DNA of 20,007 nt, taken from Anaerolineales bacterium. Its GTDB lineage: Bacteria > Chloroflexota > Anaerolineae > Anaerolineales > Villigracilaceae. The position numbers and the translations under genes were made by a program. The stretch spans positions 1 to 20,007 of the forward strand of contig DATDAG010000321.1 in NCBI GenBank assembly GCA_036525495.1, read 5' to 3'. The stretch's first letter is position 1, and each line of letters begins with the position of its first letter. The notes under the pieces were generated by a model, which was given only the letters and a program-made list of their open reading frames with translations, was not told the origin of the DNA and made no database searches. This document shows, in pieces, positions 2,052 to 17,981 of the stretch.

Positions 2052-3938
2052 ATGCCAAAGAATATATCCAGGAAACGGGTTGAGAAGTTGTTCTCAGAAA
2101 TACAACAACTTTCCTCCGATTCTAATGGACACCTACCTGAAAATCAGCCTGTACTAACCAAGCCTTTGGGTAGTGGAATACAGTCCAGTACTCCTGCCCT
2201 GTTGTTTCAGGAAGAAATAGATATCTTGCAGGCACGCGTGCTGGAATTGGAAGCGCGGCTCAAGGAAAGCGAAAAGCATGTCACTTCCACGCCCATCATC
2301 TATGAAAAGGAAGAGGTTGGATTTGCCTATGCCGGGGATAAGGTCATGCCGATTCGAGGCACCCAGCAATTGGTCCAGAACGAAGCGGATGTTATCAAGA
2401 CTCCATTGACCTCAAGCGGAAGAGCCATTGGTGAAGTCCAGGTTGCCCAACCGTCCGAACGTCCATTGACCCATGACGATATTAAACTCGCGAACACGAT
2501 CGCTCAGCAAGCCTCGCTTCAGATCGAAAACCTTCGCCTGCTCGCCGCCGCTGAACGCGCCCGCGCTGAAGCGGAAGAAGCCACCCACCAGTTGACACAC
2601 AAGAACTGGGAAACCTTCCTGGACGCCATCCACAACAGCGAACGGATCGGCTATGCTTACGATCAAGCATCGGTGGAGCCGTTTACGAATCCTGCCCCTG
2701 CGGATTTTGATCACGAAGAGACCATGCAGGTGCTCGATCAACAAATCGGCAGGTTCTTTGTCAAGGGCAAGGACGCAGTTTCACGAGAAGACAAGGCTCT
2801 CATCAGCGCAGTCGTTAAACAAGTTGGGCAACAGATGGAGAATATCCGCCTGCTTGCCGATGCCGCGCGCGCGCGCGCCGACGCAGAAGCCGCCACGCGC
2901 CGCCTTACCCGCGAAAACTGGCAATCCTATGCGGAACAAAACGAGACTGAGACGCTGGGCTTTGTCTACGATTCAAACATCGTTACGCCGATTGGATCAA
3001 TCCCAATCCCATACAATAACGCATTCGAACAGCCACTGGTCGTGCAAGGTGAATCCATAGGGCAATTGAAGGTGATGGGTATGCAGAATATTTCGACGGA
3101 TGCAAGAGGGCTTGCCGCCTCCATCGCTGCACAAGCCAGCATCCATCTTGAAACCCTGCGCCTGAATGAAGAATTGCAAAAGCGCGCGCGTGAATTGCAG
3201 GAACTTGACCGCCTAAAATCGGCGTTCCTTGCGAACATGTCGCATGAGTTGCGAACACCCCTGAACTCGATCCTCGGCTTTACAGATGTCATGCTCGAAG
3301 GTCTGGACGGTGAATTGACAGATTACATGGATAACGATCTGCGCCTCATTCAAAAGAACGGACAACACCTTCTGCATCTCATCAACGACGTTCTGGATAT
3401 GGCTAAGATCGAATCCGGGCGCATGAACTTGAATCCTGAAAATTTCAGAATCCACGATATCTTTGACGATGTCAACAGCATTACATCTTCACTGGCAAAT
3501 GCAAGAAACACCGAACTCATCATCGATGAAAAATCGGATGGCGAAGCGGAGATCTACGCAGACAGCACGCGCGTCAAACAGGTGATGATCAACCTCGTCA
3601 ACAATGCGATCAAATTTACAACAAATGGCAAGATTACCATGAGTGTATCCAGGATGGATGGTGCAAGAGTATTGATCTCGGTCAAAGATACCGGTCTCGG
3701 TATTCCTTCAGATCATCTCGAGGCAATCTTCCAGGAATTCACCCAGGTCGATACATCCACCACCCGTAAGGTCGGTGGTACAGGCCTGGGCTTGCCGATC
3801 AGTCGTCGTCTCATCGAAATGCACGGCGGACGCCTTTGGGCTGAAAGCACCGGCGTTGAAGGTGAAGGTTCAACATTCTTTATCGAAATGCCCCTCCAGG
3901 CGCGTATTACCGAAGTAATCGAAAAGCAGGAAAAATAA
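2052..3938 (+). CDS. Soluble sensor histidine kinase (coiled-coil N-terminus, three ~100-aa repeat modules, HisKA + HATPase_c)
   Basis: H-box SAFLANMSHELRTPLNSILGF, with the His codon at 3243-3245. N-box NLVNNAIKFT, G1 VKDTGLGIP, F IFQEFTQ, G2 GGTGLGLPISRRL. No hydrophobic TM segments. I prefer the ATG at 2052 (AGGAG at 2039-2043, 8-nt spacer) over the TTG at 2046 in the ORF track (2-nt spacer). Confidence 0.9.
   Translation: MPKNISRKRVEKLFSEIQQLSSDSNGHLPENQPVLTKPLGSGIQSSTPALLFQEEIDILQARVLELEARLKESEKHVTSTPIIYEKEEVGFAYAGDKVMPIRGTQQLVQNEADVIKTPLTSSGRAIGEVQVAQPSERPLTHDDIKLANTIAQQASLQIENLRLLAAAERARAEAEEATHQLTHKNWETFLDAIHNSERIGYAYDQASVEPFTNPAPADFDHEETMQVLDQQIGRFFVKGKDAVSREDKALISAVVKQVGQQMENIRLLADAARARADAEAATRRLTRENWQSYAEQNETETLGFVYDSNIVTPIGSIPIPYNNAFEQPLVVQGESIGQLKVMGMQNISTDARGLAASIAAQASIHLETLRLNEELQKRARELQELDRLKSAFLANMSHELRTPLNSILGFTDVMLEGLDGELTDYMDNDLRLIQKNGQHLLHLINDVLDMAKIESGRMNLNPENFRIHDIFDDVNSITSSLANARNTELIIDEKSDGEAEIYADSTRVKQVMINLVNNAIKFTTNGKITMSVSRMDGARVLISVKDTGLGIPSDHLEAIFQEFTQVDTSTTRKVGGTGLGLPISRRLIEMHGGRLWAESTGVEGEGSTFFIEMPLQARITEVIEKQEK
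2864..2878. repeat. (CG)7 alternating dinucleotide tract inside the kinase coding sequence
   Basis: cgcgcgcgcgcgcgc read directly at 2864-2878. It encodes part of AARARAD within repeat module 2 of the kinase. Confidence 0.9.
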
Positions 3939-5603
3939 ATGGCAACACCCAAGTATCTCGAATGTAACCTCTGCGGCGATCAACAACCCTACAAACCCTT
4001 CGTGCCTGCGATATGCACCAAATGCGAATCACAGTGGCTGGAAGCGCGGTACGATTACGATGCCTTCAAACGTGAGGTCCTGCGCGGGCTTCCGAATCGC
4101 CCCTCCAACATGTGGCGTTATCAGGATGTCTTGCCACTGGAGGATCCCTCTGCCCTGGACCTTTACCCCGCGGGCGGAACTCCGCTCTGGCTCTCACATC
4201 GCTTCGCTCCCGCCCTTGGGCATGATCTGGTCTACATCAAAGACGAACGTTACGGTTCGACATCTTCTTTCAAAGACCGCCAAGCCGCCGGCGCGGTTGC
4301 AGCCATGTTGGAAAACAGCATCAAAGAAGCGGTCATCGCTTCCACTGGTAACGCCGCTGTGGCATACGCCGCCGCCTGCGCCCGCGCAGGAATCAAGCTC
4401 TGGGTCTTTATGACCAGCCTCGTGCCGCAGGAAAAATTGCACGAAGCCGCCCTCTTCGGCGCAGAAGTGATTCGAGTAAGCGGAAATTACGATCAGACCA
4501 AACAGATCGCATCCCAATTTGCGCAACGACGCAATCTACTGCTCGACCGCGGAGCCACATCCATACCGGCGCGCGAATCCATGAAAACCATCACCTATGA
4601 GATCGTCGAACAACTCGGCTGGCATGCGCCCGACTGGTATATCCAGGCTGTAAGCGGAGGCTTGGGGCCACTCGGTGTATATTCGGGTTTCAAAGAATTG
4701 TTGAACATGGGCTTGATCGATCACATTCCAAAACTGGCGATTATCCAAACCGAAGGTTGTGCGCCGATGGTCAATGCCTTCAAAGCCGGAAAAGATGTCG
4801 CCGAGCCGGTCATTCCTGAAACCAGCATCATCATCCTGTCAACAGGCGATCCCGGCAAAGCATTTACGTATCTATGGAATCTCACACAGCACCATGGCGG
4901 TGTGATGGAATCCGTAACGGATGCAGAAGCATTTGCCGCAATGCGGGCACTGGCAAAAAGCGAGGGAATGGCTGTCGAACCGGCAACATCTGTCGCCTTC
5001 GCCGGACTCGAGAAGTTGATCCGCAATGGTACGATCAAATCTGACGAGAAGGTCGTTGTCAATTGTACCGGTCATACCTTTCCTGTCGAAAAGCATGTGC
5101 TCGGCGATCAATGGGCTGTGGATGTGCATCTTAGTGAGGACCAGTCCCCCGCGCCACATGAAGGCTTGCAGGCAGCGCTCGAAAATCTCGATGAGAAAAC
5201 GAAAACCGTTTTACTGGTGGATGACAATTCAGACGATGCCCTGCTGATCCGCCGATTACTTGAAGGTTACAAGGCTTATCGTGTCTTTCATGCAAAAGAT
5301 GGCAGGGAGGGACTGGCAATGGCTCGGCAAAAACTGCCCGACCTCATCGTCTCTGATCTCACCATGCCCGGTATAGATGGTTTTGGGCTGGTCGAGGAAC
5401 TCAAACTCGATCCGCGCACAAAAGACATTCCGGTGGTTGTTGTCAGCGCGAAGGATATTACAGCGGATGAACGAAAGAGGCTGAATGGTCATATCCAGGC
5501 TGTGTATCAAAAAGGCTCATTGTCCACCAAAAAATTCGTGAGCCAGGTGATCGATGTCATCGAGGAATCAGGCGAAACGCAGGAGCAGGGAGAAAAGGCA
5601 TGA
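3939..5603 (+). CDS. Threonine-synthase-family (fold-type II PLP) enzyme fused to a C-terminal response-regulator receiver domain
   Basis: One uninterrupted 554-codon ORF. The ATG at 3939 directly abuts the kinase stop TAA 3936-3938. The N-terminal zinc ribbon is CNLC...CTKC, followed by the WRYQDVLPLED motif, the PLP-lysine motif SSFKDR (Lys codon 4272-4274), ASTGNAA, the GGLGPLG phosphate loop and a C-terminal NCTGHT. A linker of ~35 aa follows, then a REC domain (nt ~5202-5558) with LLVDDN, the phospho-acceptor D in LIVSDLTMPGIDG (codon 5355-5357), VVVVSA and YQKG. Confidence 0.85.
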   Translation: MATPKYLECNLCGDQQPYKPFVPAICTKCESQWLEARYDYDAFKREVLRGLPNRPSNMWRYQDVLPLEDPSALDLYPAGGTPLWLSHRFAPALGHDLVYIKDERYGSTSSFKDRQAAGAVAAMLENSIKEAVIASTGNAAVAYAAACARAGIKLWVFMTSLVPQEKLHEAALFGAEVIRVSGNYDQTKQIASQFAQRRNLLLDRGATSIPARESMKTITYEIVEQLGWHAPDWYIQAVSGGLGPLGVYSGFKELLNMGLIDHIPKLAIIQTEGCAPMVNAFKAGKDVAEPVIPETSIIILSTGDPGKAFTYLWNLTQHHGGVMESVTDAEAFAAMRALAKSEGMAVEPATSVAFAGLEKLIRNGTIKSDEKVVVNCTGHTFPVEKHVLGDQWAVDVHLSEDQSPAPHEGLQAALENLDEKTKTVLLVDDNSDDALLIRRLLEGYKAYRVFHAKDGREGLAMARQKLPDLIVSDLTMPGIDGFGLVEELKLDPRTKDIPVVVVSAKDITADERKRLNGHIQAVYQKGSLSTKKFVSQVIDVIEESGETQEQGEKA

Positions 5604-5980
5604 AACCCAACATCCTGTATATTGAAGATCATTCCGACAATATGACGCTTGTCAAAAGGATATTCCGACCGGACAGTTATAATCTGATCGAAGCATGGAC
5701 AGGATTTCAGGGTATAGCCATTGCTGAAAGCCAGAATATCGACCTTGTTTTGCTGGATATCAACCTGCCGGATATGGATGGGTACGAGGTAGCCCACCGT
5801 TTACGGGCAAGCACAAAACCCGAATTAGCCAATACACCGATTATTGCGGTCACAGCCAATGCAATGAAAGGTGATGCAAAAAAGGCAATGGACGCCGGAT
5901 GTAACGATTATATGTCCAAGCCCATCAACATTGTGGATCTTTTTGAAAAAGTTGAAACTTTGATTGCAAATAAGATTTGA
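5600..5980 (+). CDS. Single-domain CheY-like response regulator (receiver only)
   Basis: ILYIEDHSDN acidic pocket, LVLLDINLPDMDG phospho-acceptor Asp, IIAVTANA, YMSKPI Lys. The ATG at 5600 overlaps the upstream stop (ATGA, 5600-5603). GGAG lies 7 nt upstream. Confidence 0.9.
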   Translation: MKPNILYIEDHSDNMTLVKRIFRPDSYNLIEAWTGFQGIAIAESQNIDLVLLDINLPDMDGYEVAHRLRASTKPELANTPIIAVTANAMKGDAKKAMDAGCNDYMSKPINIVDLFEKVETLIANKI

Positions 5981-5991
5981 GGTATTAGTTC

Positions 5992-6369
5992 ATGACACAT
6001 AACATCCTATACATTGAAGATAACCCGGATAACACAACACTCGTCAGGCGCGCCCTGGAATCGCGCGGGTATAAACTTTTTCATTCCCCGAACGGTACGC
6101 GCGGGGTCAGCATGGCTGAGGAGGAAGATATTGCCCTAGTCCTGCTTGATATCAACCTGCCTGACATTGACGGCTATGAAGTGGCACGACGTTTGCGATC
6201 CAGCAAAAAACGTGAACTATCTACTGTTCCGATCATTGCTGTGACGGCGAACGCACTCAAAGGTGATGCGGAAAAGGCATTGGAGGCTGGCTGTGACGTA
6301 TACATGTCCAAGCCCATTAATATCCGCGAACTATGGGCACGTGTGGAAGCTTTCGTACCGGCTGCGTAG
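5992..6369 (+). CDS. Single-domain CheY-like response regulator, tandem paralogue of 5600-5980
   Basis: ILYIEDNPDN, LVLLDINLPDIDG, IIAVTANA, YMSKPI. In my ungapped hand alignment, 73 of 125 positions are identical to the upstream gene. The intergenic gap is 11 nt, with GAGG overlapping the upstream stop. Confidence 0.9.
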   Translation: MTHNILYIEDNPDNTTLVRRALESRGYKLFHSPNGTRGVSMAEEEDIALVLLDINLPDIDGYEVARRLRSSKKRELSTVPIIAVTANALKGDAEKALEAGCDVYMSKPINIRELWARVEAFVPAA

Positions 6370-6452: not shown

Positions 6453-7619
6453 ATGACATATTCTCATCTTTCTCATTTGAAATGTTCAGGTTGTAGCAGG
6501 GAATTCTCCGCGCGGGAAATCCATACCTACTGTCCTGATTGCCAGTCACCGCTTCTGGCAATCTATGATTTAAAGCAGGTACGCAGCCAAGTGGGCCGGG
6601 ATGAAATTACCCGCCGCCGAAAAGGGATGTGGCGCTGGCAGGAACTGCTCCCCATTGCCGATCAGGAAAATGTCGTATTCCTTGGAGAGGGCGATACCGC
6701 CTTGCTAAGAGTCTCCAATTTGGGCAGAGAACTTGGGCTTGCCAATCTTTTTGTAAAAGACGAAAGCACAAATCCTACTGGATCCTTCAAAGCCAGGGGG
6801 TTGGCGGCCGCTGTATCCAAGGCAAAAGAGTTGGGGATCAAAAAGGTGATTATCCCCACAGCAGGCAACGCGGGTGGGGCGATGGCGGCTTATGCTGCAC
6901 GCGCGAATATTCAAGCTATGATCTATATGCCCAAGGATACACCACGCGCTAATGTTGAAGAGAGCCGTATAGCAGGTGCGGAGGTCATCTTGATTGATGG
7001 GCTGATCAGTGACGCGGCTGGTCTGGCGGGAGAGAAAGCACGTGCAGAGGGGTGGTTTGATTTATCCACGTTTAAAGAGCCGTATCGCACAGAAGGAAAG
7101 AAGGTCATGGGGTATGAACTTGCAGAAGCCTTCGATTGGACATTACCCGATGTAATCATCTACCCCACCGGGGGAGGCACAGGTCTTGTCGGAATGTGGA
7201 AGGCATTTGCCGAACTCGAGGAATTGGGGTGGTTGGAAAACACAAAAAGACCGCGTATGGTAGCTGTACAGGCGGAAGGTTGCGCGCCAGTCATCAAGGC
7301 GTTTGAAAGTGGCGCGGAGTTTTGTGATTTTTGGATAAACGCACATACTCTGGCATCCGGGTTGCGGGTGCCAAAAAGTTTTGCTGATGCTTTGATCCTG
7401 AAAGACCTGCGCGCGAGTAACGGGACGGCTGTTTCGGTCAGTGACGAATCGATCTTACAGGCACAAAGTCAACTAGGCAGGCTGGAGGGGATCTTTGCCG
7501 CACCGGAAGGAGCAGCGACACTTGCGGCGCTTGTGACACTTCTCGAGCAAAAGTGGATCTCACCTAATGAGCGCGTGGTACTGTTCAATACCGGTTCCGG
7601 CTTGAAATATCTTGAATAG
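6453..7619 (+). CDS. thrC: Threonine synthase, archaeal-type with N-terminal zinc ribbon (PLP-dependent)
   Basis: Zinc ribbon CSGC...CPDC, WRWQELLPIAD, canonical VKDESTNPTGSFKARG (Lys codon 6789-6791), PTAGNAG, EPYRTEGKKV, PTGGGTGLVG, C-terminal FNTGSGLKY. The family assignment is solid. Whether this is the housekeeping thrC cannot be decided from the window. Confidence 0.8.
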   Translation: MTYSHLSHLKCSGCSREFSAREIHTYCPDCQSPLLAIYDLKQVRSQVGRDEITRRRKGMWRWQELLPIADQENVVFLGEGDTALLRVSNLGRELGLANLFVKDESTNPTGSFKARGLAAAVSKAKELGIKKVIIPTAGNAGGAMAAYAARANIQAMIYMPKDTPRANVEESRIAGAEVILIDGLISDAAGLAGEKARAEGWFDLSTFKEPYRTEGKKVMGYELAEAFDWTLPDVIIYPTGGGTGLVGMWKAFAELEELGWLENTKRPRMVAVQAEGCAPVIKAFESGAEFCDFWINAHTLASGLRVPKSFADALILKDLRASNGTAVSVSDESILQAQSQLGRLEGIFAAPEGAATLAALVTLLEQKWISPNERVVLFNTGSGLKYLE

Positions 7620-7770: not shown

Positions 7771-8142
7771 GTGGCAAAGATCCTTTATATCGAGGATATT
7801 CAAGATAACATCACACTTGTGGAAAAGATCGTTACATCGCGCGGGCATGAATTCCTATTCGCGCATAGCGCTGAAGAGGGATTGGAGATGGCGGTCATGT
7901 CCAGGCCAGACCTGATCCTGCTCGATCTGGGTTTGCCGGATGCCGACGGTCAGACCCTTTCCGTATGGTTGAGAGGCGATCCCGCTTTAGCCTCTGTCCC
8001 CATCATTGTTCTAACTGCCTGGCCCGAGGAGGTGGCGCGCCAAACCGTCGACGCCTACAATCTGAACGGATATCTATGTAAACCATTCTCCCTGTCAAGT
8101 TTGGTAAAGATGATCGATTCTGTTCTGGACTCAAAGTCATAA
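7771..8142 (+). CDS. Single-domain CheY-like response regulator (more divergent third copy)
   Basis: GTG start with GGAGG at 7761-7765 (5-nt spacer). ILYIEDIQDN, LILLDLGLPDADG, IIVLTAW, LCKPF. Confidence 0.85.
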   Translation: MAKILYIEDIQDNITLVEKIVTSRGHEFLFAHSAEEGLEMAVMSRPDLILLDLGLPDADGQTLSVWLRGDPALASVPIIVLTAWPEEVARQTVDAYNLNGYLCKPFSLSSLVKMIDSVLDSKS

Positions 8143-8999
8143 TGTCGATCGAGATCATACCGGCAGATCGTTTCACGATTCAGGAATTGACCGATCTCTA
8201 TAATCAAACAAGGGTGGATTATCTCGTTCCGATGCCAATGAACGCAGACAGGTTAAATGAATATATACACGACTTCAATGTTGACTTGCGGCGATCCGGT
8301 GTTGCGCGCGATGCGAATGGGCAGGTGCTCGGGCTGAGCATGTTGGGCATTCGACAGGAAATGGCATGGGTCACCCGCCTGGGAATTTTGCCGTCTTCCC
8401 GCCGAACCGGTGCCGGTTCACTATTAATGGATTTCATGTTGAACAATGCTGATACACTTGGAATGAAAGAGACTCATCTGGAAGTGATCAAGAACAACGA
8501 ACCTGCCTATACACTGTTCTTGAAGAAGGGATTTGTCGAATCAGGAACATATCTGGTCATGCGCCATGCACCACGCCCGCTATCGGATTCTCTTCAAGGG
8601 GATGTGACATGGCTTGATTTCGAGAAGGCGCTGGAAAAACTTGAAGACTATCCAGAGCATATTACATGGATCAACGCCTTGGAGTCCATGCAAAATTCGC
8701 CAAATACCGAAGGCCTGCAAATAAATTTCCCGGATGGCACATCGGGCTGGCTGGTATACCGCAACACAAAATTTACACTAAGATCGACGCTTAGTCATTT
8801 GATCATGCACACCGAACAGGGGAAACCACAGAATGTTGGCATGCAACTTTTATCCCATTTACACACCCGTTACCTGCATCACGATACCTACGCGGAGAAC
8901 ATACACGAAAACGACCCGCATCTCCCAGCCTTCCATGCATTGGGATATTTTACAAACTTCTCGCGGATCGAAATGCGACGACAAAGGGATGGGAATTAA
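8142..8999 (+). CDS. GNAT-family N-acetyltransferase with a C-terminal second, degenerate GNAT-like half
   Basis: The start overlaps the upstream stop by 1 nt (TAATG at 8140-8144). Acetyl-CoA motif A reads VTRLGILPSSRRTGAGSLLMDFML, followed by NNEPAYTLFLKKGF. The C-terminal ~140 aa end in ENDPHLPAFHALGYFTNFSRIEM, which resembles the end of a GNAT fold but lacks the R/QxxGxG/A loop. Confidence 0.75.
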   Translation: MSIEIIPADRFTIQELTDLYNQTRVDYLVPMPMNADRLNEYIHDFNVDLRRSGVARDANGQVLGLSMLGIRQEMAWVTRLGILPSSRRTGAGSLLMDFMLNNADTLGMKETHLEVIKNNEPAYTLFLKKGFVESGTYLVMRHAPRPLSDSLQGDVTWLDFEKALEKLEDYPEHITWINALESMQNSPNTEGLQINFPDGTSGWLVYRNTKFTLRSTLSHLIMHTEQGKPQNVGMQLLSHLHTRYLHHDTYAENIHENDPHLPAFHALGYFTNFSRIEMRRQRDGN

Positions 9000-9089: not shown

Positions 9090-10886
9090 ATGAAAGGTTG
9101 GAACGAGAAAATTTTAGAGATTGACCTGGCAACGGGCATTGTGCGTACCGTGCCCTTGGATATGGACATGGCGCGCCTATTCATTGGCGGGCGCGGACTA
9201 GGCGCTCGTTTACTGTGGGATTTGGTCGGCGTGGAAGTTGATCCACTCTCGCCTGAGAATGTGCTCATCATTGCCAATGGCCCGCTGACCGCCACCGGCT
9301 ACCAGACCAGCAATCGGTTTTCGATCACCACCAAAAGCCCGCTAACGGGCACAGTGCTCGATGCGAATTCCGGGGGCTTTTGGGGAATGCAGTTCAAGAA
9401 AACCGGTTACGATGCGCTTGTGATCCACGGCAGAGCTGAAAAGCCAATGTGGATCGAAATCAAGAACGGCGGTGCAACTCTGCATGACGCGTCGGCGTTA
9501 TGGGGGCGGCGAGTGTTCGATGTTACGAAAACGCTTGGGCAAAACAATAACCAACGCAATGTATTGTGCATTGGTCCCGCGGGCGAGAATCTGAGCCGCA
9601 TTGCCGCCATCATGAACGACGGCGAACGCGCGGCGGCGCGCGGCGGTGTAGGCGCAGTGATGGGCTCGAAAAACCTGAAAGCGGTCGTAGTGGAGGGTAA
9701 GGAAAAAACAGAGGTCGTCGATAAAGAACAATTCAAATTCATGCTCTACGAAGCCAGGAAACTGCTCGCCGCCAATCCTGTCACCAGCCAGGCGTTGCCG
9801 GAGTTTGGCACGGCAGTGATAATGAACCTGATGAACAATATTGGGGCACTTCCCACGCGCAACTTCCAGCAATCGCACTTCGAAGGCGCGGAGGAGATCT
9901 CCGGCGAAGCACTGACCGAAAAATATCTGGTCAGGAATGCCTCCTGCTGGGCATGCCCCATCGGCTGTACGCGTATCACCAGGACCGACAAGGTCGAAGG
10001 CGAGGGGCCCGAGTTTGAATCCACTTGGTCTTTTGGCGCATCATGCGGGGTGGATGATCTCTCGGCGATCATCGAAGCCAATAATCTTTGCAACGACCTG
10101 GGATTTGACACAATCTCTGCCGGGGCAACGATTGCCTGCGCGATGGAACTCAGCGAAAGGGGATATATCGATTCGCCTCTGCGCTTTGGCCGCGCAGACC
10201 TGTTGGCTCCCACACTGGAGGATATGGCATTCCGACGCGACCTAGGCGCGGATCTCGCCGAAGGTTCGCTGCGGCTGGCAGAGAAATATGGGCATCCCGA
10301 ATTATCTATGTCTGCCAAGGGGCTCGAGCTCCCGGCGTATGATCCACGCGGCATGCAGGGACAGGGCTTGTTGTTCGCCACGTCGAACCGGGGCGGCTGT
10401 CATATGCGCGGCAACATGCTCGGACTGGAAGTGCTCGGCTTGCCCAAGCTGATAGACCGATTCCAGGTTCAGGGAAAAAGCAGTTTTGTCATCCTGCACC
10501 AGAACTCCAACGCGGCAATCGATTCTCTTGTATTATGCAAATTCACCAACATTGGCGTGGCGGAGGAATACTTTGCGCGGGTATTGACCGCGGTGACGGG
10601 CGTTCCCTACTCGACCGGTGATTTGATCAAGGCTGGGGAGCGCATCTGGAATCTGGAACGAATGCTGAATCTCCGCTTTGGCTTTACTCACGCCGATGAC
10701 ACACTGCCCCCACGTCTACTGACCGAACCTGTTGTGGAAGGCGCCTCGAAGGGTTGGGTGGTACAACTTGACCCCATGCTCAGGGAATACTATCGTACGC
10801 GCGGATGGGACGAGAACGGTATGCCGAAGGCGAAAAAACTGGCAGACCTGGAGCTGGCAGGCTTGATGGAAGGAGAAACCTCATGA
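9090..10886 (+). CDS. aor: Aldehyde:ferredoxin oxidoreductase family (tungstopterin/[4Fe-4S] enzyme)
   Basis: Typical AOR N-terminus MKGWNEKILEIDLATG...FIGGRGLGARLLWD. Cluster cysteines in ASCWACPIGC plus LVLCKF. Pterin-binding-type motifs NDLGFDTIS and RGGCHMRG. AGGAG at 9078-9082 lies 7 nt from the ATG. Confidence 0.9.
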   Translation: MKGWNEKILEIDLATGIVRTVPLDMDMARLFIGGRGLGARLLWDLVGVEVDPLSPENVLIIANGPLTATGYQTSNRFSITTKSPLTGTVLDANSGGFWGMQFKKTGYDALVIHGRAEKPMWIEIKNGGATLHDASALWGRRVFDVTKTLGQNNNQRNVLCIGPAGENLSRIAAIMNDGERAAARGGVGAVMGSKNLKAVVVEGKEKTEVVDKEQFKFMLYEARKLLAANPVTSQALPEFGTAVIMNLMNNIGALPTRNFQQSHFEGAEEISGEALTEKYLVRNASCWACPIGCTRITRTDKVEGEGPEFESTWSFGASCGVDDLSAIIEANNLCNDLGFDTISAGATIACAMELSERGYIDSPLRFGRADLLAPTLEDMAFRRDLGADLAEGSLRLAEKYGHPELSMSAKGLELPAYDPRGMQGQGLLFATSNRGGCHMRGNMLGLEVLGLPKLIDRFQVQGKSSFVILHQNSNAAIDSLVLCKFTNIGVAEEYFARVLTAVTGVPYSTGDLIKAGERIWNLERMLNLRFGFTHADDTLPPRLLTEPVVEGASKGWVVQLDPMLREYYRTRGWDENGMPKAKKLADLELAGLMEGETS

Positions 10887-11494
10887 TTGATGAACGCATC
10901 TACGAAATGTTCCGCGAGATCGGGCACGATATGTACGTTGCCAACATGATCTCGTCCCACGGCGGCAACCTCAGCATCCGCCTGGGAGACCGGGTCATCA
11001 TCAAGCGGCGCGGCGCAATGTTGGGCAATCTCAAAAAGCATGATCTGATCGAAACCGGACTGGAAAAGAACGATAGCGGTGTGACTTTGGCATCCACCGA
11101 ACTATTGGTGCATCGCGCCATTTACATGAACACCCCCGCCCTGGCGATATGTCACTGTCACCCGCGCACGGCAATAGCCTTTTCTCTTTCGCGCGACGAG
11201 ATCGTCCCTGTTGACAACGAAGCATCGTATCTCTTGAAGAAAGTCCCCGTGATCAGTGAAGAGTTTGCCTCCGGCACACCGGAGATGGCAAAGAAGGTTG
11301 CCAGTGCGCTCGAAAATTATAAGATCATCATGTTGCGCGGGCATGGCAGTTTTGCAACCGGGCAGACCCTCGATGAAGCCTTTCAGTGGTCGTCCACGCT
11401 CGAGGAATCCTGCCAGATCACGTTGTGGACGAAGATGATCGACGAGCCGTTCATCGAATACCGCAAAATGAGTGGATCATATAATAAGTTCTAA
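10883..11494 (+). CDS. Class II aldolase/adducin-family protein (FucA / MtnB-like)
   Basis: SSHGGNLSIR, metal-ligand HCHP, MLRGHGSFATGQTLDEA. I chose the ATG at 10883 (AGGAG 10871-10875, 7-nt spacer, ATGA overlap with the aor stop). The upstream extension from 10805 in the ORF track lies wholly inside aor. Confidence 0.8.
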   Translation: MIDERIYEMFREIGHDMYVANMISSHGGNLSIRLGDRVIIKRRGAMLGNLKKHDLIETGLEKNDSGVTLASTELLVHRAIYMNTPALAICHCHPRTAIAFSLSRDEIVPVDNEASYLLKKVPVISEEFASGTPEMAKKVASALENYKIIMLRGHGSFATGQTLDEAFQWSSTLEESCQITLWTKMIDEPFIEYRKMSGSYNKF

Positions 11495-11511
11495 AGGAAA
11501 AGTTTCCTCCC

Positions 11512-12975
11512 ATGAAATTTCAGGTCAAAAATTACCTTTTGCCACGATTGCAGGATGTCTTCTTTCTGGTGATTTTTATTATGGCATTGGTCTTTGGGGA
11601 TCGGATGCTCAACCTTGATGGAGACTTACCGCGCCACCTTGCGGCAGGAAAGTTGATCCTGCAAGCCAGGGCAATACCAGCAAGCGAACCGTTTGTATAT
11701 CCGCTGGCGGAAGAACCTTACACATCACACGAATGGCTGACAGATGTTGTGCTCTATCTGATCCATTCTGTGTCTGGCGCAGCCGGGCTGGTATGGTTCA
11801 CGGCTGTTTTATTATCATCAACATTTTTGATTCTATATTCCCATCTGTCTGCCCGCTTCAACCTGCGACTGCCATCCTTTTTCATTCTTGCCCTGGGCGC
11901 CGCTGTTACCTCCCTTAACTGGTCCTTGCGGCCCCATATGTTGAGCATGTTTTTTCTGTCCATTTGGCTTGTTTGGACAGACAAGCTGTCTCGAGGTGAA
12001 AAGGTACCGGTTTGGATCTTCCCTGCCTTTATGGTCTTATGGGCAAACCTGCATGGCGAATTCATCGCGGGCATTTTGGTATTGTTTGCCTTCTCCGCTG
12101 GCTGGTTATGGGATTTTATTTTCGATCGTGAAAATGTCAGCGCCGTTGCCGGTCGGAGCTTATGGCTGGCGTTGCTTCTTTCCCTCTTTGCGACCCTTCT
12201 CAACCCATCAGGGCTCCAGCCATGGAGGATGATAATTGGTGTTGTTAATAACGACTATCTGATGTCGCGTATCGCTGAAAACCATCCGCCGGATTTCTCA
12301 CAGTCGAACTTCCTGATCCTCATGGTTTTGTTGGTACTCTCCGTTGCATTGCTTGCAATCAAAAAGGAAAGAATCGCAACGGGGAAAGCCTTTCTGCTTG
12401 CCGGGTTTACCGCCATGAGCCTCATGGCCGGGCGTAACATCCATTTATATGGAATTGTCGCTCCGTTCATCCTGGTGGAAACGTTGCTTGCCGCCAAGGA
12501 TGTAAAACTCGTAAATCGTCTTGAAACAGTGGTACGGGGAATGGAAAAAGGAATACGAGGAGCGCTTTGGATCCTGATCGTTACGGCATTTATTGGCGTC
12601 AACCTTTTATCTGGCAGGTATGGGAATATATATCAGTTCGACAATCAGGTCTTTCCCGTTGATGCAGTAAACTGGCTTGAAAGCCATCCGCAAAATGGGC
12701 AAATGTTCAACAAACTGGATTGGGGCGGATACATTGAATTTCGGCTCGGACCCGAAAATAAGGTTTTCGCTGACAGCATTTCAGATGTGACCGGTGAAGT
12801 TACCCGCAAGTACGAGACCGTCATAGGGCTGGCCGACGGTTGGGAGAGTATATTGAATGAGCATCATGTGGATTGGACCATCATCCCAACCAAATCCGAA
12901 CTTGCAGCCACACTAAAGGAAGCGGGCTGGGATATTCTCTATGAAGACGAAACAGCGACCATCCTGCGACGGTAA
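11512..12975 (+). CDS. Polytopic integral membrane protein with C-terminal soluble domain; possible GT-C-like glycosyltransferase (function uncertain)
   Basis: About 10-12 hydrophobic segments. The first loop carries the acidic motif NLDGDLPRH. A WANLHGEF motif is present. The hydrophilic C-terminal ~100 aa include LDWGGYIEFRLGPENKVFADS. I recognise no family with confidence. Confidence 0.6.
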   Translation: MKFQVKNYLLPRLQDVFFLVIFIMALVFGDRMLNLDGDLPRHLAAGKLILQARAIPASEPFVYPLAEEPYTSHEWLTDVVLYLIHSVSGAAGLVWFTAVLLSSTFLILYSHLSARFNLRLPSFFILALGAAVTSLNWSLRPHMLSMFFLSIWLVWTDKLSRGEKVPVWIFPAFMVLWANLHGEFIAGILVLFAFSAGWLWDFIFDRENVSAVAGRSLWLALLLSLFATLLNPSGLQPWRMIIGVVNNDYLMSRIAENHPPDFSQSNFLILMVLLVLSVALLAIKKERIATGKAFLLAGFTAMSLMAGRNIHLYGIVAPFILVETLLAAKDVKLVNRLETVVRGMEKGIRGALWILIVTAFIGVNLLSGRYGNIYQFDNQVFPVDAVNWLESHPQNGQMFNKLDWGGYIEFRLGPENKVFADSISDVTGEVTRKYETVIGLADGWESILNEHHVDWTIIPTKSELAATLKEAGWDILYEDETATILRR

Positions 12976-12989
12976 CAATCGCCCCTCTG

Positions 12990-13649
12990 CTATCCGTTCA
13001 ATTTGATCAATCCCATTTTCACTGCCGCAAGCACCGCCTGGGCACGGTTGGGTTGTTTCATTTTTTCAAGAATATTCTTAGCGTGGCTTCGCACGGTCTC
13101 TTCACTGACGCTCAACTGCACCGCGATCTGCTTGTAGGTATTCGGCGTTGCCATGTATTCCACTATTTCCATTTCGCGCGGTGTAAGTGAAACAGGATGT
13201 GGTTGGTGCGGCTGCATCATCTCGATCACTTTCTTCATCACATCCGGATGCAGATACGCCTCACCATTCATCACCGCATGAATGGCTCGCACCAACTCCC
13301 CCGGCTCGATATTTTTCAACACATATCCTTCAATGCCCGCCGCTACCACTTCATGCACGCGGTCGTCCACTTCCGTGCCGGTCAACATCATGATCTTGAT
13401 ATCCGGATTCGACTTGCGCAATGCCAGCGCCATTTCCTGCCCGTCCATTTCAGGCATGACCAGATCCACAAGGACGATATCTGGATCGAGACTCTTTGCC
13501 AACTCCAAACCGATTCGTCCATTCTCCGCTTCGTCTACGACCTCGAAATCTGATTCCTGACGAAGGACCATCACCAATCCCTTACGGACTACTGCGTGAT
13601 CGTCAATGAGAAGGATGCGGATGCGATCAGGCATGATGATGGTGTCCAT
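12990..13649 (-). CDS. NarL/LuxR-family response regulator (REC + HTH)
   Basis: ILLIDDHAVVRKGL, IVLVDLVMPEMDG, IMMLTG and the LuxR-type HTH LTPREMEIVEYMATPNTYKQIAVQLSVSEETVRSHAKNILEKM. The start is ATG at 13649 or at 13634 (MPDRIRILLIDD). Either overlaps the kinase stop at 13627-13629. Confidence 0.9.
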   Translation of the reverse strand: MDTIIMPDRIRILLIDDHAVVRKGLVMVLRQESDFEVVDEAENGRIGLELAKSLDPDIVLVDLVMPEMDGQEMALALRKSNPDIKIMMLTGTEVDDRVHEVVAAGIEGYVLKNIEPGELVRAIHAVMNGEAYLHPDVMKKVIEMMQPHQPHPVSLTPREMEIVEYMATPNTYKQIAVQLSVSEETVRSHAKNILEKMKQPNRAQAVLAAVKMGLIKLNG

Positions 13650-15312
13650 TGATGGGGATATTGATCATGATACGCGTGCCTGCATTGGGTTGTGAATTGA
13701 TCTCGAAGTCACCGCCTAGGGCTTTTGTACGTTCCTGCAGTCCGCGTAAGCCAAAGTGCTCGCGGTTCTGACTGCGTGATATGGCAATCTCCGGGTCAAA
13801 TCCTTTGCCTTCATCAGATACCACTAAATAGATTTCGTCATCCGTCACCGTTAGACACAACCGTGCAGACTGCACTCCCGAATGCCGTGCAGAGTTTGCC
13901 AATGCCTCCTGCGCCATGCGATAGACCGTCCGCCGCATACCAGAAGAGAGGGAATTGAAATCGCCGTTATTGTTGAAGATGATGCTGAACCGCCGCGGAC
14001 GACAACAACTGCTGACGTAGTTCGTCAGGTCAGCCATGAAAAGCTCCATCGTGAGCGCGGAGGGCCACAGATCAAAGATGGAGCGGCGGACTCCGTCGTG
14101 GGCGTTATTGGCGAGCGCGCGCAATTCGATCAATTCTGTTTTTACGTCATCTGCTTTTGCAGGGAGCATGTTAATGCAGGCATCGAGGCTGTAAACGATT
14201 CCAAAGAGCGATTGCGCCACTGTATCGTGGATGTCGCGTGCAATGCGGTTGCGCTCGGTTTCGACGGCGAGGCGTCGGGCGCGGTCAATGCACAGGATGG
14301 TCGTACCAAGCGCGAGGGCGGCTTGATTCGCAACAGTCATCAGGGTGTTTTCGCGCTCTTTATTGATCCCCGTTTCGTCGACGAGGAGAAGCCCGACAGG
14401 GTGTTCCCGCAAGTAAAGCGGAAGCACAAGCCATTTGTTTTGATTGAGCCAGTTGTTGAGGGCAGGGTCGCGGACAAGGGTCCCGCCATTTGAAATGAAA
14501 TTGTTGCGATTTAATAAGGCCTTGAAAACTTCACCATTCTCTGACTTGAGGGGCAGTGTTTCTGTTTTGGGAAATGATTCCTCTTTGGGATATACCAACC
14601 AGCCGCCAAGTTCCTCGCGCGCGGGGTCAACCAATGCAACAACCGCTTTTGAAAAGCCAAGGTCGGTTGTGACCGCGCCGAGCACGCGCTCCTGAACGGA
14701 CAACAGGTCGGGCGCCGCCTGCAATAATATGGTGAGGTCGTGGATGATCTCCAACTGGCGGTGCGCGTTCGCAAGGTCTTCATTTGCCTGGTTTATGGAT
14801 TTGAGCAGATTGGATGAGTATGCAAACAGCATGGGGATTAACCATATGCCTGTCAATTGGGTTGTCATGGCTGTGACATTCATTTGCAGGTTGAGTATTT
14901 GTAATCCAATCAGTTCACCTGTGATATAAAGAAGTGTAAATATCAGGGATGCGATCAGCGCTCCTCTCATTTGAAAGAAAAATGCTCCTGCCAGCAATGG
15001 ACCTAGAGCATAGAGATAATACGGACTTTCGTGACCGCCACTGACCGCAAGGAGCCCGGCTGTGAAGATCAGGTCCACGCTTAGAAAAGCAGGGTGTTCC
15101 ACTACAATTCTATTGAGTTGGCGATTTGTCAGGGAAATGATGATGTTCGCAAGCAATGCAATGGCTAACAATAAGACAGGTGATATTGATCGGGCAGGCT
15201 GGTCTTGAAAGGCAATTCCAAAGAATACTGGAAGTAGCGACGCCCAGCGAAAGATAACCAAAAATGAAAAAACGCGGTTAGGTTGAAAAATTGACAGTAG
15301 TTTTTTGTACAT
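13627..15312 (-). CDS. Membrane sensor histidine kinase (about 6 TM, GAF, HisKA_3, HATPase_c), NarX/DegS-type
   Basis: The N-terminal ~170 aa are hydrophobic helices with only short loops. A GAF-like region contains LVLPLYLREHPVGLLLVDE. HisKA_3 H-box ERNRIARDIHDTVAQSLFG. ATPase boxes EALANSARHS, VSDEGKGF and GLRGLQERTKALGG. The protein ends NGHHHHA. No obvious SD precedes the ATG at 15312. Confidence 0.9.
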   Translation of the reverse strand: MYKKLLSIFQPNRVFSFLVIFRWASLLPVFFGIAFQDQPARSISPVLLLAIALLANIIISLTNRQLNRIVVEHPAFLSVDLIFTAGLLAVSGGHESPYYLYALGPLLAGAFFFQMRGALIASLIFTLLYITGELIGLQILNLQMNVTAMTTQLTGIWLIPMLFAYSSNLLKSINQANEDLANAHRQLEIIHDLTILLQAAPDLLSVQERVLGAVTTDLGFSKAVVALVDPAREELGGWLVYPKEESFPKTETLPLKSENGEVFKALLNRNNFISNGGTLVRDPALNNWLNQNKWLVLPLYLREHPVGLLLVDETGINKERENTLMTVANQAALALGTTILCIDRARRLAVETERNRIARDIHDTVAQSLFGIVYSLDACINMLPAKADDVKTELIELRALANNAHDGVRRSIFDLWPSALTMELFMADLTNYVSSCCRPRRFSIIFNNNGDFNSLSSGMRRTVYRMAQEALANSARHSGVQSARLCLTVTDDEIYLVVSDEGKGFDPEIAISRSQNREHFGLRGLQERTKALGGDFEINSQPNAGTRIMINIPINGHHHHA

Positions 15313-15818: not shown

Positions 15819-16343
15819 ATGTCAAAATCTGATCCGAATGCTCCGAAGAGACTGGCTCTCATTTCCAGCAAAGGGACTCTTGATTGGGCCTATCCCCCAT
15901 TCATTCTTGCGACTGCAGGAGCTGCGATGGGTTGGGAGGTAGGCGTTTTCTTTACCTTTTTCGGCTTGCCCCTGCTAAAACCAAAACTGACTGCCGCAGT
16001 CTCACCTTTGGGCAACCCAGCCATGCCGATGAAAATGCCCTTTGGACCTGAAGGTTTCCAGAATATCAATTGGCCCATGCCAAACCTGCTCATGGCGAAC
16101 GTGCCCGGATTTGAATCGGTTGCCACGAGCCTGATGAAACAGACTTTCAAGAACAAAGGTGTGGCTACCATTGAAGAGATGCGCGATATGGCGGTCGAAA
16201 TGGATGTTCGCCTGATCGGTTGCCAAATGACAATGGATGTCTTCGGGTTTAAAAGAGAAGACTTCATTTCAGAAGCAGAGATCGGCGGCGCGGCGACCTT
16301 CCTAGAATATGCTGCAGACGCGGATGTGCAGTTGTTCATCTAA
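15819..16343 (+). CDS. DsrE/DsrF-like family sulfur-transfer protein (long, COG2210-like form)
   Basis: KRLALISSKGTLDWAYPPFILATAGAAMGWEVGVFFTFFG and the C-terminal IGCQMTMDVFG...GGAATFLEYA...LFI are typical of the family as I recall it. There is a single Cys (codon 16221-16223). GAGAGG lies 5 nt before the ATG. Confidence 0.75.
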   Translation: MSKSDPNAPKRLALISSKGTLDWAYPPFILATAGAAMGWEVGVFFTFFGLPLLKPKLTAAVSPLGNPAMPMKMPFGPEGFQNINWPMPNLLMANVPGFESVATSLMKQTFKNKGVATIEEMRDMAVEMDVRLIGCQMTMDVFGFKREDFISEAEIGGAATFLEYAADADVQLFI

Positions 16344-16347
16344 TTGG

Positions 16348-16382
16348 AAATCGGCGGCTTAAGATCACTTAACCGCCGATTT
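16348..16382 (+). terminator. Strong hairpin immediately after the dsrE-like stop; terminator/attenuator-like
   Basis: AAATCGGCGGCTTAAG-atca-CTTAACCGCCGATTT forms a stem of about 15 bp with one bulged C (16358) and a 4-nt loop. It is followed by ATATAAAA, so the U-tract is poor (TTT lies partly in the stem). Confidence 0.45.
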
Positions 16383-16407
16383 ATATAAAACCCGGAGTGG
16401 AGAAAAG

Positions 16408-16746
16408 ATGGACGATTTTTCTGTAAAACACGAACTCAACGGAAACGTAGCTGTAGTTACCGTTTCAGGCAGAGTGGATTCTTTTACTGCCTCAATGCTG
16501 GATACTGAACTGGCAAAAATTGTACGCGAAAATAAACAGTTGGTATTGGATCTCAAGGAAGTGGTGTATATGTCATCCGCGGGGGTACGCGCCATCGTCA
16601 GGACATTACAGACTGCACAAAAGTCAAATGGCGGGGTCAGTCTGGCTTGTGTCACCGAGTCTGTTGAAACGGTCTTACGGACCGTCGGAATGTTGGAATT
16701 ACTCAAGGTGTATCCATCTGTGGATGAAGCAGTTGCAAGTTTCTAA
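16408..16746 (+). CDS. STAS-domain protein (anti-sigma-factor antagonist, SpoIIAA/RsbV-like)
   Basis: The 112-aa protein aligns by hand to B. subtilis SpoIIAA around the phospho-serine: LDLKEVVYMSSAGVRAIV versus LNLEDLSFMDSSGLGVIL, so Ser57 here matches Ser58 there. The C-terminal VLRTVGMLELLKVYPSVDEAV is typical of the family. GGAG lies 5 nt upstream, and the gene ends in a double stop TAATAA. Confidence 0.8.
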   Translation: MDDFSVKHELNGNVAVVTVSGRVDSFTASMLDTELAKIVRENKQLVLDLKEVVYMSSAGVRAIVRTLQTAQKSNGGVSLACVTESVETVLRTVGMLELLKVYPSVDEAVASF

Positions 16747-16767
16747 TAAAAAGAGGAGAGGGCAGTT

Positions 16768-17163
16768 ATGTGGAAATCGAACGACCCTGATGAGAAAAAG
16801 ATCTTGTACGTCCAAACTCACGGAAGGAAAGACCCCGAGCGGACGGCTACGCCGTTCTTTCTCGCGACCGCCGCGGCCGCAATGGACAACGAGGTCTGCA
16901 TCTACTTTACGATGAACGGACCACAGTGTCTATCAAAAGGTGCGGGAGATGAGATCGTTGTTCCCAAGGCGGGAGGCGGTGGGAGGGAACTGAAATACTT
17001 CATCGACCAGGCAATTGACATGGGCGTGCGGCTCTTTGTCTGTCAGCCATCGCTCGACCTGCATGGTTTCACAATGGATGACATGATCGAGGGTGTGGAG
17101 ATGATCGGTGGCGCTGCATTCAATGACATGGCTGTTCATGCCGATGCAGTGATTTCTTTTTAG
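16768..17163 (+). CDS. DsrE-family protein (short, COG2044-like form)
   Basis: KKILYVQTHGRKDPERTATPFFLATAAAAMDNEVCIYFTMNG and RLFVCQPSLDLHGF...IGGAAFNDM...VISF. The Cys in VCQPS sits at the position equivalent to GCQMT of the other paralogue. GAGGAG lies 9 nt upstream. Confidence 0.7.
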   Translation: MWKSNDPDEKKILYVQTHGRKDPERTATPFFLATAAAAMDNEVCIYFTMNGPQCLSKGAGDEIVVPKAGGGGRELKYFIDQAIDMGVRLFVCQPSLDLHGFTMDDMIEGVEMIGGAAFNDMAVHADAVISF

Positions 17164-17203
17164 CGTCTCAACGATCCCACGTTTCAACATTTTAGGAGGC
17201 ACA

Positions 17204-17911
17204 ATGCCTACCACATTAGATAATTGGAATCCAGGCAAGGCTGAAAGTCGTCATCCCGAAGCGACCTACGAAGAAAAGGAACGCCTCTTTCTTGAGGTCA
17301 AGAATGATACGCGCTACGAAGACTTCCTGTATGGATGTTACGAGTGCGGTATTTGTGTTTCGGCTTGTCCGTCCGCGCGTTTCTATGATTTCAGTCCGCG
17401 TGTGATCGCGCAGGCCATGGCACGCGAAGATGTTGAACGTATCTACGACATCATCACTGAAGACATTTGGAATTGCGCACAATGCTTCTCCTGCGTACGT
17501 TGTCCGCGTCAAAACAACCCTGGGGGGCTGGTCACCATTTTGCGCGAAGTCTCCCTCAAAAATGGATTACAAGAATCGAAAGATGCTTTGCAAGGTTACA
17601 GCCGTGTGATCTATAAGGTCATGCTCAAAGGCAATCAGGTTTCGCCTGATATGCTCCAGCCCGATTTCTTCCCCGACTGGGGTCCGTGGGTGCAGGGCTT
17701 TACCGAAAACATGCACGTCTGGCGTAAAGCCATTCCTATGGATTCGATCCGCGGGTTGACCGATGTTGCCTGGCGCACAGATCGTAAAACGCTTCTTGAA
17801 CTGTACACCATCTGGTTCGAGTCTGGCAATATGGACATCATCAAAGAATTGGATGAAAGCCTGTATGACCTGTTGACCGAAGTAATGGAAGAAGAATTGG
17901 AAGAGGGTTAA
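17204..17911 (+). CDS. hdrC: Heterodisulfide reductase subunit C-like protein (two [4Fe-4S] motifs)
   Basis: CYECGICVSACP (CxxCxxCxxxCP) and CAQCFSCVRCP. AGGAGG is at 17194-17199. Confidence 0.85.
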   Translation: MPTTLDNWNPGKAESRHPEATYEEKERLFLEVKNDTRYEDFLYGCYECGICVSACPSARFYDFSPRVIAQAMAREDVERIYDIITEDIWNCAQCFSCVRCPRQNNPGGLVTILREVSLKNGLQESKDALQGYSRVIYKVMLKGNQVSPDMLQPDFFPDWGPWVQGFTENMHVWRKAIPMDSIRGLTDVAWRTDRKTLLELYTIWFESGNMDIIKELDESLYDLLTEVMEEELEEG

Positions 17912-17981
17912 ACGCTTCGCGCTTAACCCAAACTTGATTCTGACTTAATGGTTTGATCCACGCTGAAAACTGGAGAACACT

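Follow-up and report, generated by a model that had tools for sequence, protein, structure and literature searches.

Response regulators almost always act on transcription or through second-messenger, chemotaxis or phosphatase enzymes. The CheB methylesterase, the PleD and WspR diguanylate cyclases and the HD-GYP protein RpfG join a complete receiver to an enzyme and have a kinase gene adjacent. In PhyR and CheV, the effector comes first and the receiver last, with the receiver controlling the N-terminal domain; these effectors bind proteins (sigma-like and CheW-like, respectively) and are not enzymes. The gene considered here, at positions 3939-5603 of a 20,007-nucleotide (nt) stretch of DNA from an Anaerolineales bacterium (contig DATDAG010000321.1; the whole stretch analysed is referred to as the window), combines features of both arrangements. 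Its product carries a threonine synthase (ThrC)-like pyridoxal phosphate (PLP) domain followed by a complete receiver (REC), and a histidine kinase gene lies adjacent. It shares the effector-then-receiver order with PhyR and CheV, and it differs from CheB, PleD, WspR and RpfG in the C-terminal position of the receiver and in its predicted effector, which is a PLP enzyme that metabolizes amino acids and not a signalling enzyme. As in CheB, PleD, WspR and RpfG, phosphorylation would be expected to relieve inhibition or to activate through dimerisation. Receiver-enzyme fusion is an established concept (CheB, PleD, RpfG), as is the C-terminal receiver (PhyR, CheV); the new element would be the PLP-enzyme effector, and a full-text literature search found no description of a PLP enzyme or a ThrC joined to a receiver. 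With a confidence only a little above even, we take this fusion protein to be a response regulator with an enzyme as its effector, part of a two-component system with several receivers that is conserved throughout the class Anaerolineae.

The gene and the parts of its product are laid out as follows, in window positions.

3939-5603, + strand: fusion gene, a single open reading frame (ORF) of 554 residues beginning with ATG
3939-4103, + strand: N-terminal Cys4 zinc ribbon, residues 1-55, with C9, C12, C26 and C29 as two CxxC pairs
4104-5078, + strand: ThrC-like fold-type II PLP domain, residues 56-380 (PF00291, 3.8e-68), with the motifs ASTGN at 134-138 (S135-T-G-N138), RESMKT at 212-217 (E213-S-M-K-T217), SGGLGPLG at S239-G246, E347-P-A and N375-C-T-G-H-T380
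4272-4274, + strand: codon of the predicted Schiff-base lysine K112, within GSTSSFKDRQ (residues 106-115)
5079-5198, + strand: inter-domain linker of about 40 residues (381-420), with invariant E384 and L388 and a short helix, EGLQAALENL, ahead of the receiver
5199-5603, + strand: C-terminal receiver, residues 421-540 (PF00072, 4.5e-17), with tail and stop; acidic pocket D428/D429, S503 and K525
5355-5357, + strand: codon of the predicted phospho-acceptor D473, within LIVSDLTMPG (residues 469-478)

Pfam finds both domains in this one ORF, PALP (PF00291) at residues 78-378 with 230 bits and Response_reg (PF00072) at residues 424-517 with 62.7 bits against a gathering score of 30.2, in agreement with the original prediction, which had been made from the sequence alone. 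Its account of the reading frame stands too: the 554-codon translation contains no internal stop, and the last in-frame Met ahead of the receiver, M343, lies within the PLP domain. Every motif that it quoted was recovered in the translation (the CxxC pairs, GSTSSFKDRQ, ASTGN, RESMKT, SGGLGPLG and LIVSDLTMPG). Matches to solved structures begin at about residue 54-60, and the zinc ribbon is covered by no solved ThrC structure. An AlphaFold (AF2) model of the monomer has a mean predicted local distance difference test score (pLDDT) of 79.5 and a predicted template-modelling score (pTM) of 0.66. The receiver is modelled as a confident fold with a (beta-alpha)5 pattern (pLDDT about 70-88), and residues 382-420 of the linker, at pLDDT 34-46, are predicted to be disordered.

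The fusion belongs to a large family. A search of 5.8 billion proteins clustered at 90% identity returned at least 120 clusters of close relatives (group A); all 120 clusters listed carry both Pfam domains, are 85-93% identical to the fusion protein and come from assemblies labelled Anaerolineales or Chloroflexota in JGI, ENA, NCBI and Logan. When GTDB genomes, one for each species, were scanned, 283 stretches proved to code for a relative; the best 80 of these 283, which were retained, are 81-91% identical to the fusion protein, nearly all full-length, and almost all from metagenome-assembled genomes of Anaerolineales, Candidatus Villigracilis among them. An exhaustive search of 50%-identity representatives yielded the further fused clusters P0121, P0122, P0123, P0124, P0125 and P0130. 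Group B, with the architecture PALP-REC-REC and about 700-720 residues, emerged from a profile search and comprises at least 120 clusters from Anaerolineae, Aggregatilineales and Phototrophicales. Group D (PALP-REC, about 548 residues), named 'threonine synthase' by NCBI, surfaced in a search seeded with the unfused relative P0129. The combination of PF00291 and PF00072 described in the original prediction therefore recurs in large Anaerolineae groups, and the fused family amounts to thousands of sequences, in hundreds of 90%-identity clusters and three paralogous groups, mostly confined to Anaerolineae. Longer members also exist, P0314 with 844 residues and P0386 with 845, the latter with an extra Pfam domain, PF23198, between PALP and REC.

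Residue conservation was followed in alignments of 253 fused sequences and in a balanced set of 115 drawn from groups A, B and D. The Schiff-base lysine K112 is kept in 252 of the 253, and the four zinc-ribbon cysteines in 250-253. Invariant or nearly so across the fused family are T108-x-S-F-K-D-R-Q115-A, S135-T-G-N, E213-(S/A)-M-K-T, Q236, S239-G-G-x-G-P-x-G, G273-C-x-P-M, T302, P305, E347-P-A and N375-x-(S/T)-G-H-T. The same degree of conservation holds for a set of putative pocket residues (T108, S110, F111, D113, R114, Q115, E213, M215, K216, T217, Q236, C274, P276, M277, T302 and P305). The receiver residues D/E428, D429, D473, S/T503 and K525 do not vary across groups A, B and D. Comparison between groups shows the highest conservation in the PLP domain (57-58% identity, versus 38-50% for REC). 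Two departures from ThrC consensus had been singled out in the original prediction, and each survives in part. KDRQ in place of KDRG is a family-wide trait, and the serine of 'GST' (S107) is a minority variant, the position being proline in 227 of 253 sequences. Likewise, E-S-M-K with a one-residue deletion relative to R-x-E-G-x-K is found throughout the family, and the preceding arginine is not conserved: group A has R at residue 212, group B has K, and group D has V, I or M.

Within group A, the linker is conserved better than any other stretch (92% mean pairwise identity), and two of its residues, E384 and L388, do not vary in any group. A segment of the protein that is predicted to be disordered is thus the most conserved one within that group, a hint that the linker has a function of its own, perhaps by packing across a presumed ThrC-type dimer. 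Degeneration of the receiver is confined to one small P0130-like subclade, the sole one in which the acidic pair and the lysine are lost. In this P0130/P0279 subclade (locus L087, 10001-11689), the degenerate receiver matches Pfam weakly, and the PLP loops carry the changes G240I, C274S, P276A and G303M. The P0130-type gene of L087 is without a kinase neighbour and adjoins genes for a DsrE protein, ornithine carbamoyltransferase (argF) and acetylornithine aminotransferase (argD).

In the window, the fusion gene is one of a head-to-tail series on the + strand, whose other members are these.

2-2023, + strand, running off the 5' end: HAMP-GAF-GAF sensor module with no kinase domain (Pfam HAMP and two GAF matches; frame 2 is open from nt 2)
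2052-3938, + strand: histidine kinase, non-hybrid, with a partial GAF domain, HisKA (69 bits) and HATPase_c (102 bits)
5600-5980, + strand: stand-alone receiver REC_a (PF00072, 9.9e-27), its ATG overlapping the TGA of the fusion gene (ATGA)
5992-6369, + strand: stand-alone receiver REC_b (PF00072, 4.4e-25)
6453-7619, + strand: canonical threonine synthase ThrC2, probably housekeeping (NF006050, 573 bits versus a cut-off of 303)
7771-8142, + strand: stand-alone receiver REC_c (PF00072, 3.2e-18), coupled to the GNAT gene (TAATG)
8142-8999, + strand: two-domain GNAT acetyltransferase (Acetyltransf_1, 4.7e-09), with the GNAT domain at residues 42-135 and a conserved C-terminal half that matches no known family

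An aldehyde:ferredoxin oxidoreductase gene follows in the same orientation. The kinase probably starts at ATG 2052, which is preceded by a GGAG motif, and its stop codon (TAA, 3936-3938) abuts the ATG of the fusion gene at 3939. The junctions TAA|ATG, ATGA and TAATG suggest translational coupling; a scan of the window for promoters and terminators gave nothing above shuffled expectation. The GNAT protein has weak similarity to amino-acid and antimetabolite N-acetyltransferases. Sensor and kinase are separate ORFs, 22-28 nt apart, as they are in the related locus L001 (4597-8121 and 8150-10000); the sensor orthologues in L001 and L002 are 1174-residue dCache_3-HAMP-GAF-GAF proteins. The split is kept in group A loci, and group B has a single fused kinase of 1271-2753 residues. 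The ORF pair of the window looks like a conserved split histidine kinase. From the oxidoreductase gene onward, the genes are probably unrelated to the fusion: the oxidoreductase ORF itself, of tungsten type and overlapping a class II aldolase ORF by 82 nt (9090-11494), a NarL-type two-component pair on the - strand (12990-15312), and genes for two DsrE-family proteins, a 4Fe-4S protein and a CCG-domain (Hdr-like) protein (15819-19202). DsrE genes thus occur near the window operon as well as beside the P0130-type gene, in an inconsistent linkage.

A tblastn-based table of 85 loci distinguishes the constant from the variable neighbours. A histidine kinase gene lies directly upstream of the fusion gene in most related loci of all groups. 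In group A, REC_b lies directly downstream wherever the locus extends far enough (mostly 69-86% identity), REC_a is present in a subset, and ThrC2 follows in about 43 of about 80 loci. ThrC2 is downstream in no group B or P0124-group locus examined and falls outside the universally conserved module. The pair of REC_c and GNAT genes recurs in 10 group A loci, three group B loci and the P0124-group locus. The three group B loci (L083-L085) consist of a giant HAMP-GAF-PAS kinase, PALP-REC-REC, a REC and an orthologous two-domain GNAT that is full-length and 34-39% identical to that of the window. The best match of the second REC of L083 among window proteins is REC_b (38%), and the P0124-type locus has the group B gene order with the second REC unfused. 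An origin from a hybrid kinase, by insertion of the PLP domain between HATPase and REC, was considered; the two group B kinases that were scanned end at HATPase_c and are non-hybrid.

Group D loci open with a kinase and one or two RECs ahead of PALP-REC; a REC-HisKA-HATPase gene often comes next, and the series closes with an EamA-family transporter (TIGR00950-like, of the carboxylate/amino-acid/amine type), found in at least 14 of the roughly 18 loci that extend far enough downstream. In one of them, L096, a third ThrC-like type stands right after the EamA gene (11462-12553; 363 residues, with NPTGSYKDRG and a PRK06450 score of 229 bits, below cut-off). The conserved module of every group, in the loci tabulated, contains no DNA-binding or other classical output domain. 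Across species, the fusion protein is 81-91% identical, REC_b mostly 69-86%, ThrC2 mostly 74-77% and the kinase 42-73%. The conservation of the fusion and of REC_b therefore equals or exceeds that of the housekeeping ThrC2 and far exceeds that of the kinase, which is unusual for two-component proteins.

The closest described enzymes are the threonine synthases (EC 4.2.3.1; Thermus thermophilus 1UIM/1V7C, Aquifex 2ZSJ). The fusion protein resembles them, at about 30% identity, in fold type II, the SFK lysine, S-T-G-N, the glycine-rich phosphate loop, EPA and the (S/T)-G-H near the pyridine nitrogen, and its Cys4 ribbon is common to the PRK08197/NF006050 class. It differs in having KDRQ rather than KDRG, (R/K/V)-E-S-M-K, a separate phylogenetic position, a C-terminal receiver and scores below cut-off. 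One alternative reading is that the protein is nevertheless a genuine ThrC isozyme, which would convert O-phosphohomoserine to threonine, with a possible side activity as a threonine or O-phosphohomoserine deaminase, and to which the receiver is a regulatory appendage, comparable to the activation of plant ThrC by S-adenosylmethionine; in group D, threonine would be made and exported through an RhtA-like EamA carrier under environmental control. The EamA family includes threonine and homoserine exporters. The nearest families by sequence and by fold are all ThrC: the closest solved relatives are the bacterial synthases 2zsj, 1uim, 2d1f and 6cgq (E about 1e-33 to 1e-38), and a Foldseek search with the AlphaFold model gave ThrC structures as top matches, with TM-scores normalised to the target of about 0.8. 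Also in its favour are the NCBI name of group D and the scores of group D and the unfused relative P0129, which reach or come near the NCBI thresholds for ThrC; P0129 is just above the NF006050 cut-off (305.5 versus 303) and also passes TIGR00260. Where ThrC has its phosphate-binding Arg, the alignment puts a basic residue, R212 in the fusion protein and K in group B. ThrC also occurs in fusions with other allosteric domains, and divergent cyanobacterial ThrC enzymes retain synthase activity (PMC12172450).

The isozyme reading is nonetheless improbable. The fusion protein falls below the cut-off of every curated ThrC model, with 236.3 bits versus 303 for NF006050, 156.8 versus 167.1 for TIGR00260 and 179 versus 421 for NF004170, and the representatives of groups B and C likewise fall below every curated equivalog cut-off. 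An isozyme would also be redundant, given the canonical ThrC encoded about 850 nt downstream. The original prediction was right about that paralogue, which carries NPTGSFKARG and YRTEGKK. The substitution of (R/K/V)-E-S-M-K for R-x-E-G-x-K, with its one-residue deletion, further argues against an isozyme, as does the hydrophobic residue that occupies the Arg position in group D. At the equivalent of R160, the phosphate-binding Arg of T. thermophilus ThrC, the fusion reads P-A-R212-E-S-M-K and is one residue shorter, and two alignments to PDB structures place R212 differently. Finally, ThrC homologues are known to be misannotated, as with the homocysteine synthase MetM (preprint 10.1101/2024.10.14.618325) and cysteate synthase. 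The fusion protein is thus not the housekeeping ThrC, by the measure of its sub-threshold scores and the canonical gene beside it.

A rough neighbour-joining tree of PLP domains, calculated without bootstrap support, gathers all fused groups in one clade together with a few unfused P0129-like proteins, one of which shares its contig with a phycobilisome-linker gene. The sister group consists of unfused proteins (P0132, P0135 and P0140) that share KDRQA and RExMKT, and ThrC2 lies in a distant clade. Judged by these comparisons, the fusion PLP domain falls in a separate and old clade marked by the signatures KDRQA and (R/K/V)-E-S-M-K-T, and its divergence appears to predate the receiver fusion, because the signatures are common to the unfused P0129, P0132, P0135 and P0140. 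The fusion had been described in the original prediction as a neofunctionalised copy of its neighbour, a relation that fails at 30% identity between the PLP domain and ThrC2 and at their placement in distant clades of the rough tree. On these grounds, and with ThrC2 adjacency missing in group B and P0124-group loci, a recent duplication of ThrC2 was ruled out; a regulatory heterodimer with ThrC2 was set aside for the same reasons. No Microcystis protein is among the best 120 matches to P0129, and no link was made to the 'unique-lineage' bifunctional ThrC of Microcystis (PMC12172450).

Other reactions are known for this scaffold. Cysteate synthase (TIGR03844; CapA2, 9k3c) and MetM are PLP enzymes of the ThrC type whose substrate is a phosphorylated amino acid and whose nucleophile differs, and they illustrate how the ThrC scaffold switches reaction and is often misannotated (preprint 10.1101/2024.10.14.618325); neither possesses a receiver. 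Cysteate synthase was rejected as an identity for the fusion protein, which scores 124.4 bits against a TIGR03844 cut-off of 324.9. Its sequence match to 9k3c is much weaker than to ThrC structures, and Foldseek aligns the model to 9k3c with a target-normalised TM-score of 0.76 and 24% identity, no better than to ThrC structures. A MetM-type homocysteine synthase, which depends on MetO thiocarboxylate, is set apart by gene content: genes for the sulfur carrier MetO and for Mec and MoeZ, which serve its maturation and activation, are missing from the gene tables of L001, L002 and L083-L091 and from the Pfam matches of the window. Regulatory elements have been added to ThrC-type domains elsewhere, in the S-adenosylmethionine-activated plant enzyme (PDB 2c2b) and in ThrC-LeuA_dimer proteins, where control is by a small-molecule ligand, not by His-Asp phosphotransfer. 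The latter, P0233 (620 residues) and P0247 (611 residues), have a ThrC-like PLP domain with a C-terminal LeuA allosteric/dimerisation domain (PF08502) and are apparently undescribed.

The reading favoured here, on a balance tipped slightly its way, is that the fusion protein is a kinase-switched, non-housekeeping ThrC-like PLP enzyme whose amino-acid-like product is acetylated or exported. An enzyme is favoured as the output because the operon is conserved without a DNA-binding output domain and because GNAT or EamA genes co-occur with it. A PLP enzyme as the effector fits the adjacent kinase, a receiver predicted to be chemically competent, the enzyme-like constraint on the PLP domain and neighbours that handle small molecules. 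Phosphotransfer, the way the switch turns and how it works, and the nature of substrate and product are inferred from this pattern. The sensor kinase, divided in the window between the HAMP-GAF sensor ORF and the GAF-HisKA-HATPase ORF, would autophosphorylate and pass the phosphoryl group to D473 of the C-terminal receiver, and also to the neighbouring single-domain receivers as branches or sinks. Phosphorylation may then alter how the receiver dimerises and how the conserved linker sits against the ThrC-like domain, itself presumably a dimer, and this change would turn the PLP-dependent activity up or down. Such gating of activity or oligomerisation by Asp phosphorylation, also proposed in the original prediction, is conjecture. 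The PLP domain would be catalytically competent, and its most likely reaction is beta/gamma-elimination or replacement, with an activated relative of O-phosphohomoserine as the amino acid substrate. The amino-acid-like product would be N-acetylated by the GNAT in groups A and B, including this window, or exported by the EamA-type transporter in group D. Residue 212 is basic where a GNAT is the partner (groups A and B) and hydrophobic where the partner is EamA (group D), a difference that suggests two kinds of substrate.

Several points weigh against this reading. A single common substrate is doubtful, because the residue aligned with the phosphate-binding Arg varies between groups (R, K, V/I/M). 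A C-terminal receiver is the minority arrangement among response regulators. Four receivers accompany one kinase, and the receiver of the fusion could be a sink rather than a switch. The adjacency of GNAT and EamA genes is guilt by association, and the GNAT could be a protein acetyltransferase under REC_c. The allosteric route cannot be read from the AF2 monomer, because it contains no confident contact that docks REC on the PLP domain (linker pLDDT 34-46, pTM 0.66). Conservation of the lysine and PLP motifs, moreover, would be equally expected of a non-catalytic, PLP-based ligand sensor.

This last possibility forms the other alternative, in which the PLP domain is a non-catalytic or very slow ligand module that holds an amino acid as an external aldimine, in the manner of GabR/MocR proteins, and tunes how its own receiver is phosphorylated or dephosphorylated, or which partner that receiver chooses. 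In this way a multi-receiver phosphorelay would take in metabolic status, and its real outputs would be the single-domain receivers, the GNAT, or both. GabR/MocR proteins provide the precedent of a PLP-binding enzyme fold recruited into a regulatory protein, and a sensor role as in GabR fits the conserved lysine and PLP motifs; they differ in consisting of a fold-type I aminotransferase and a winged-helix DNA-binding domain, with no phosphorelay. The PLP domain stands N-terminal to REC, where an input domain would be placed, and the operon has three further stand-alone receivers and no classical output domain. Sequence identity of the fusion across species exceeds that typical of ThrC2, which suggests several protein-protein interfaces, and the linker is very well conserved though predicted to be disordered. 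However, invariance in all three groups reaches many putative substrate-pocket residues, beyond those expected to bind cofactor, and the nearest unfused relatives are stand-alone enzymes. The conserved partnership with an amino-acid or metabolite transporter or an N-acetyltransferase would be accounted for more readily by an enzyme with a small-molecule product. The P0130 subclade, furthermore, keeps its PLP domain beside arginine-biosynthesis genes while its receiver has decayed, which suggests a PLP function without signalling. The sensor role is accordingly given a low probability. A joining of a ThrC-like gene to a receiver gene by assembly or sequencing error has practically none, because the same fusion recurs in groups A, B and D and in further 50%-identity clusters, with its conserved linker, in hundreds of independent assemblies (JGI, ENA, NCBI and Logan), which bears out the earlier view that these are not mis-merged genes.

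Should the enzyme reading be correct, this family would provide the first PLP-dependent effector domain of a response regulator. If the receiver controls the PLP enzyme, a sensor kinase would set a metabolic reaction post-translationally, on a timescale of seconds and without gene expression. Clear domain boundaries, an adjacent kinase and the GNAT and EamA partner genes make the hypothesis directly testable in vitro. The current names, 'threonine synthase' and 'pyridoxal-phosphate dependent enzyme', hide a signalling role and a probable non-ThrC chemistry and may mislead pathway reconstruction. The hosts are abundant, poorly understood filamentous bacteria of wastewater sludge, sediments and mats. 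A broader proposal, offered tentatively and held to be rather less likely than not to be right in full, is that a module found throughout the Anaerolineae puts under direct His-Asp phosphorelay control a dedicated PLP enzyme other than ThrC, whose product is a non-proteinogenic or modified amino acid that is then N-acetylated by the GNAT or exported by the EamA carrier. If true, it would mean that cues from the environment trigger these filamentous community bacteria to synthesize an extracellular compound derived from an amino acid, as a signal, as an antimetabolite or for cross-feeding.

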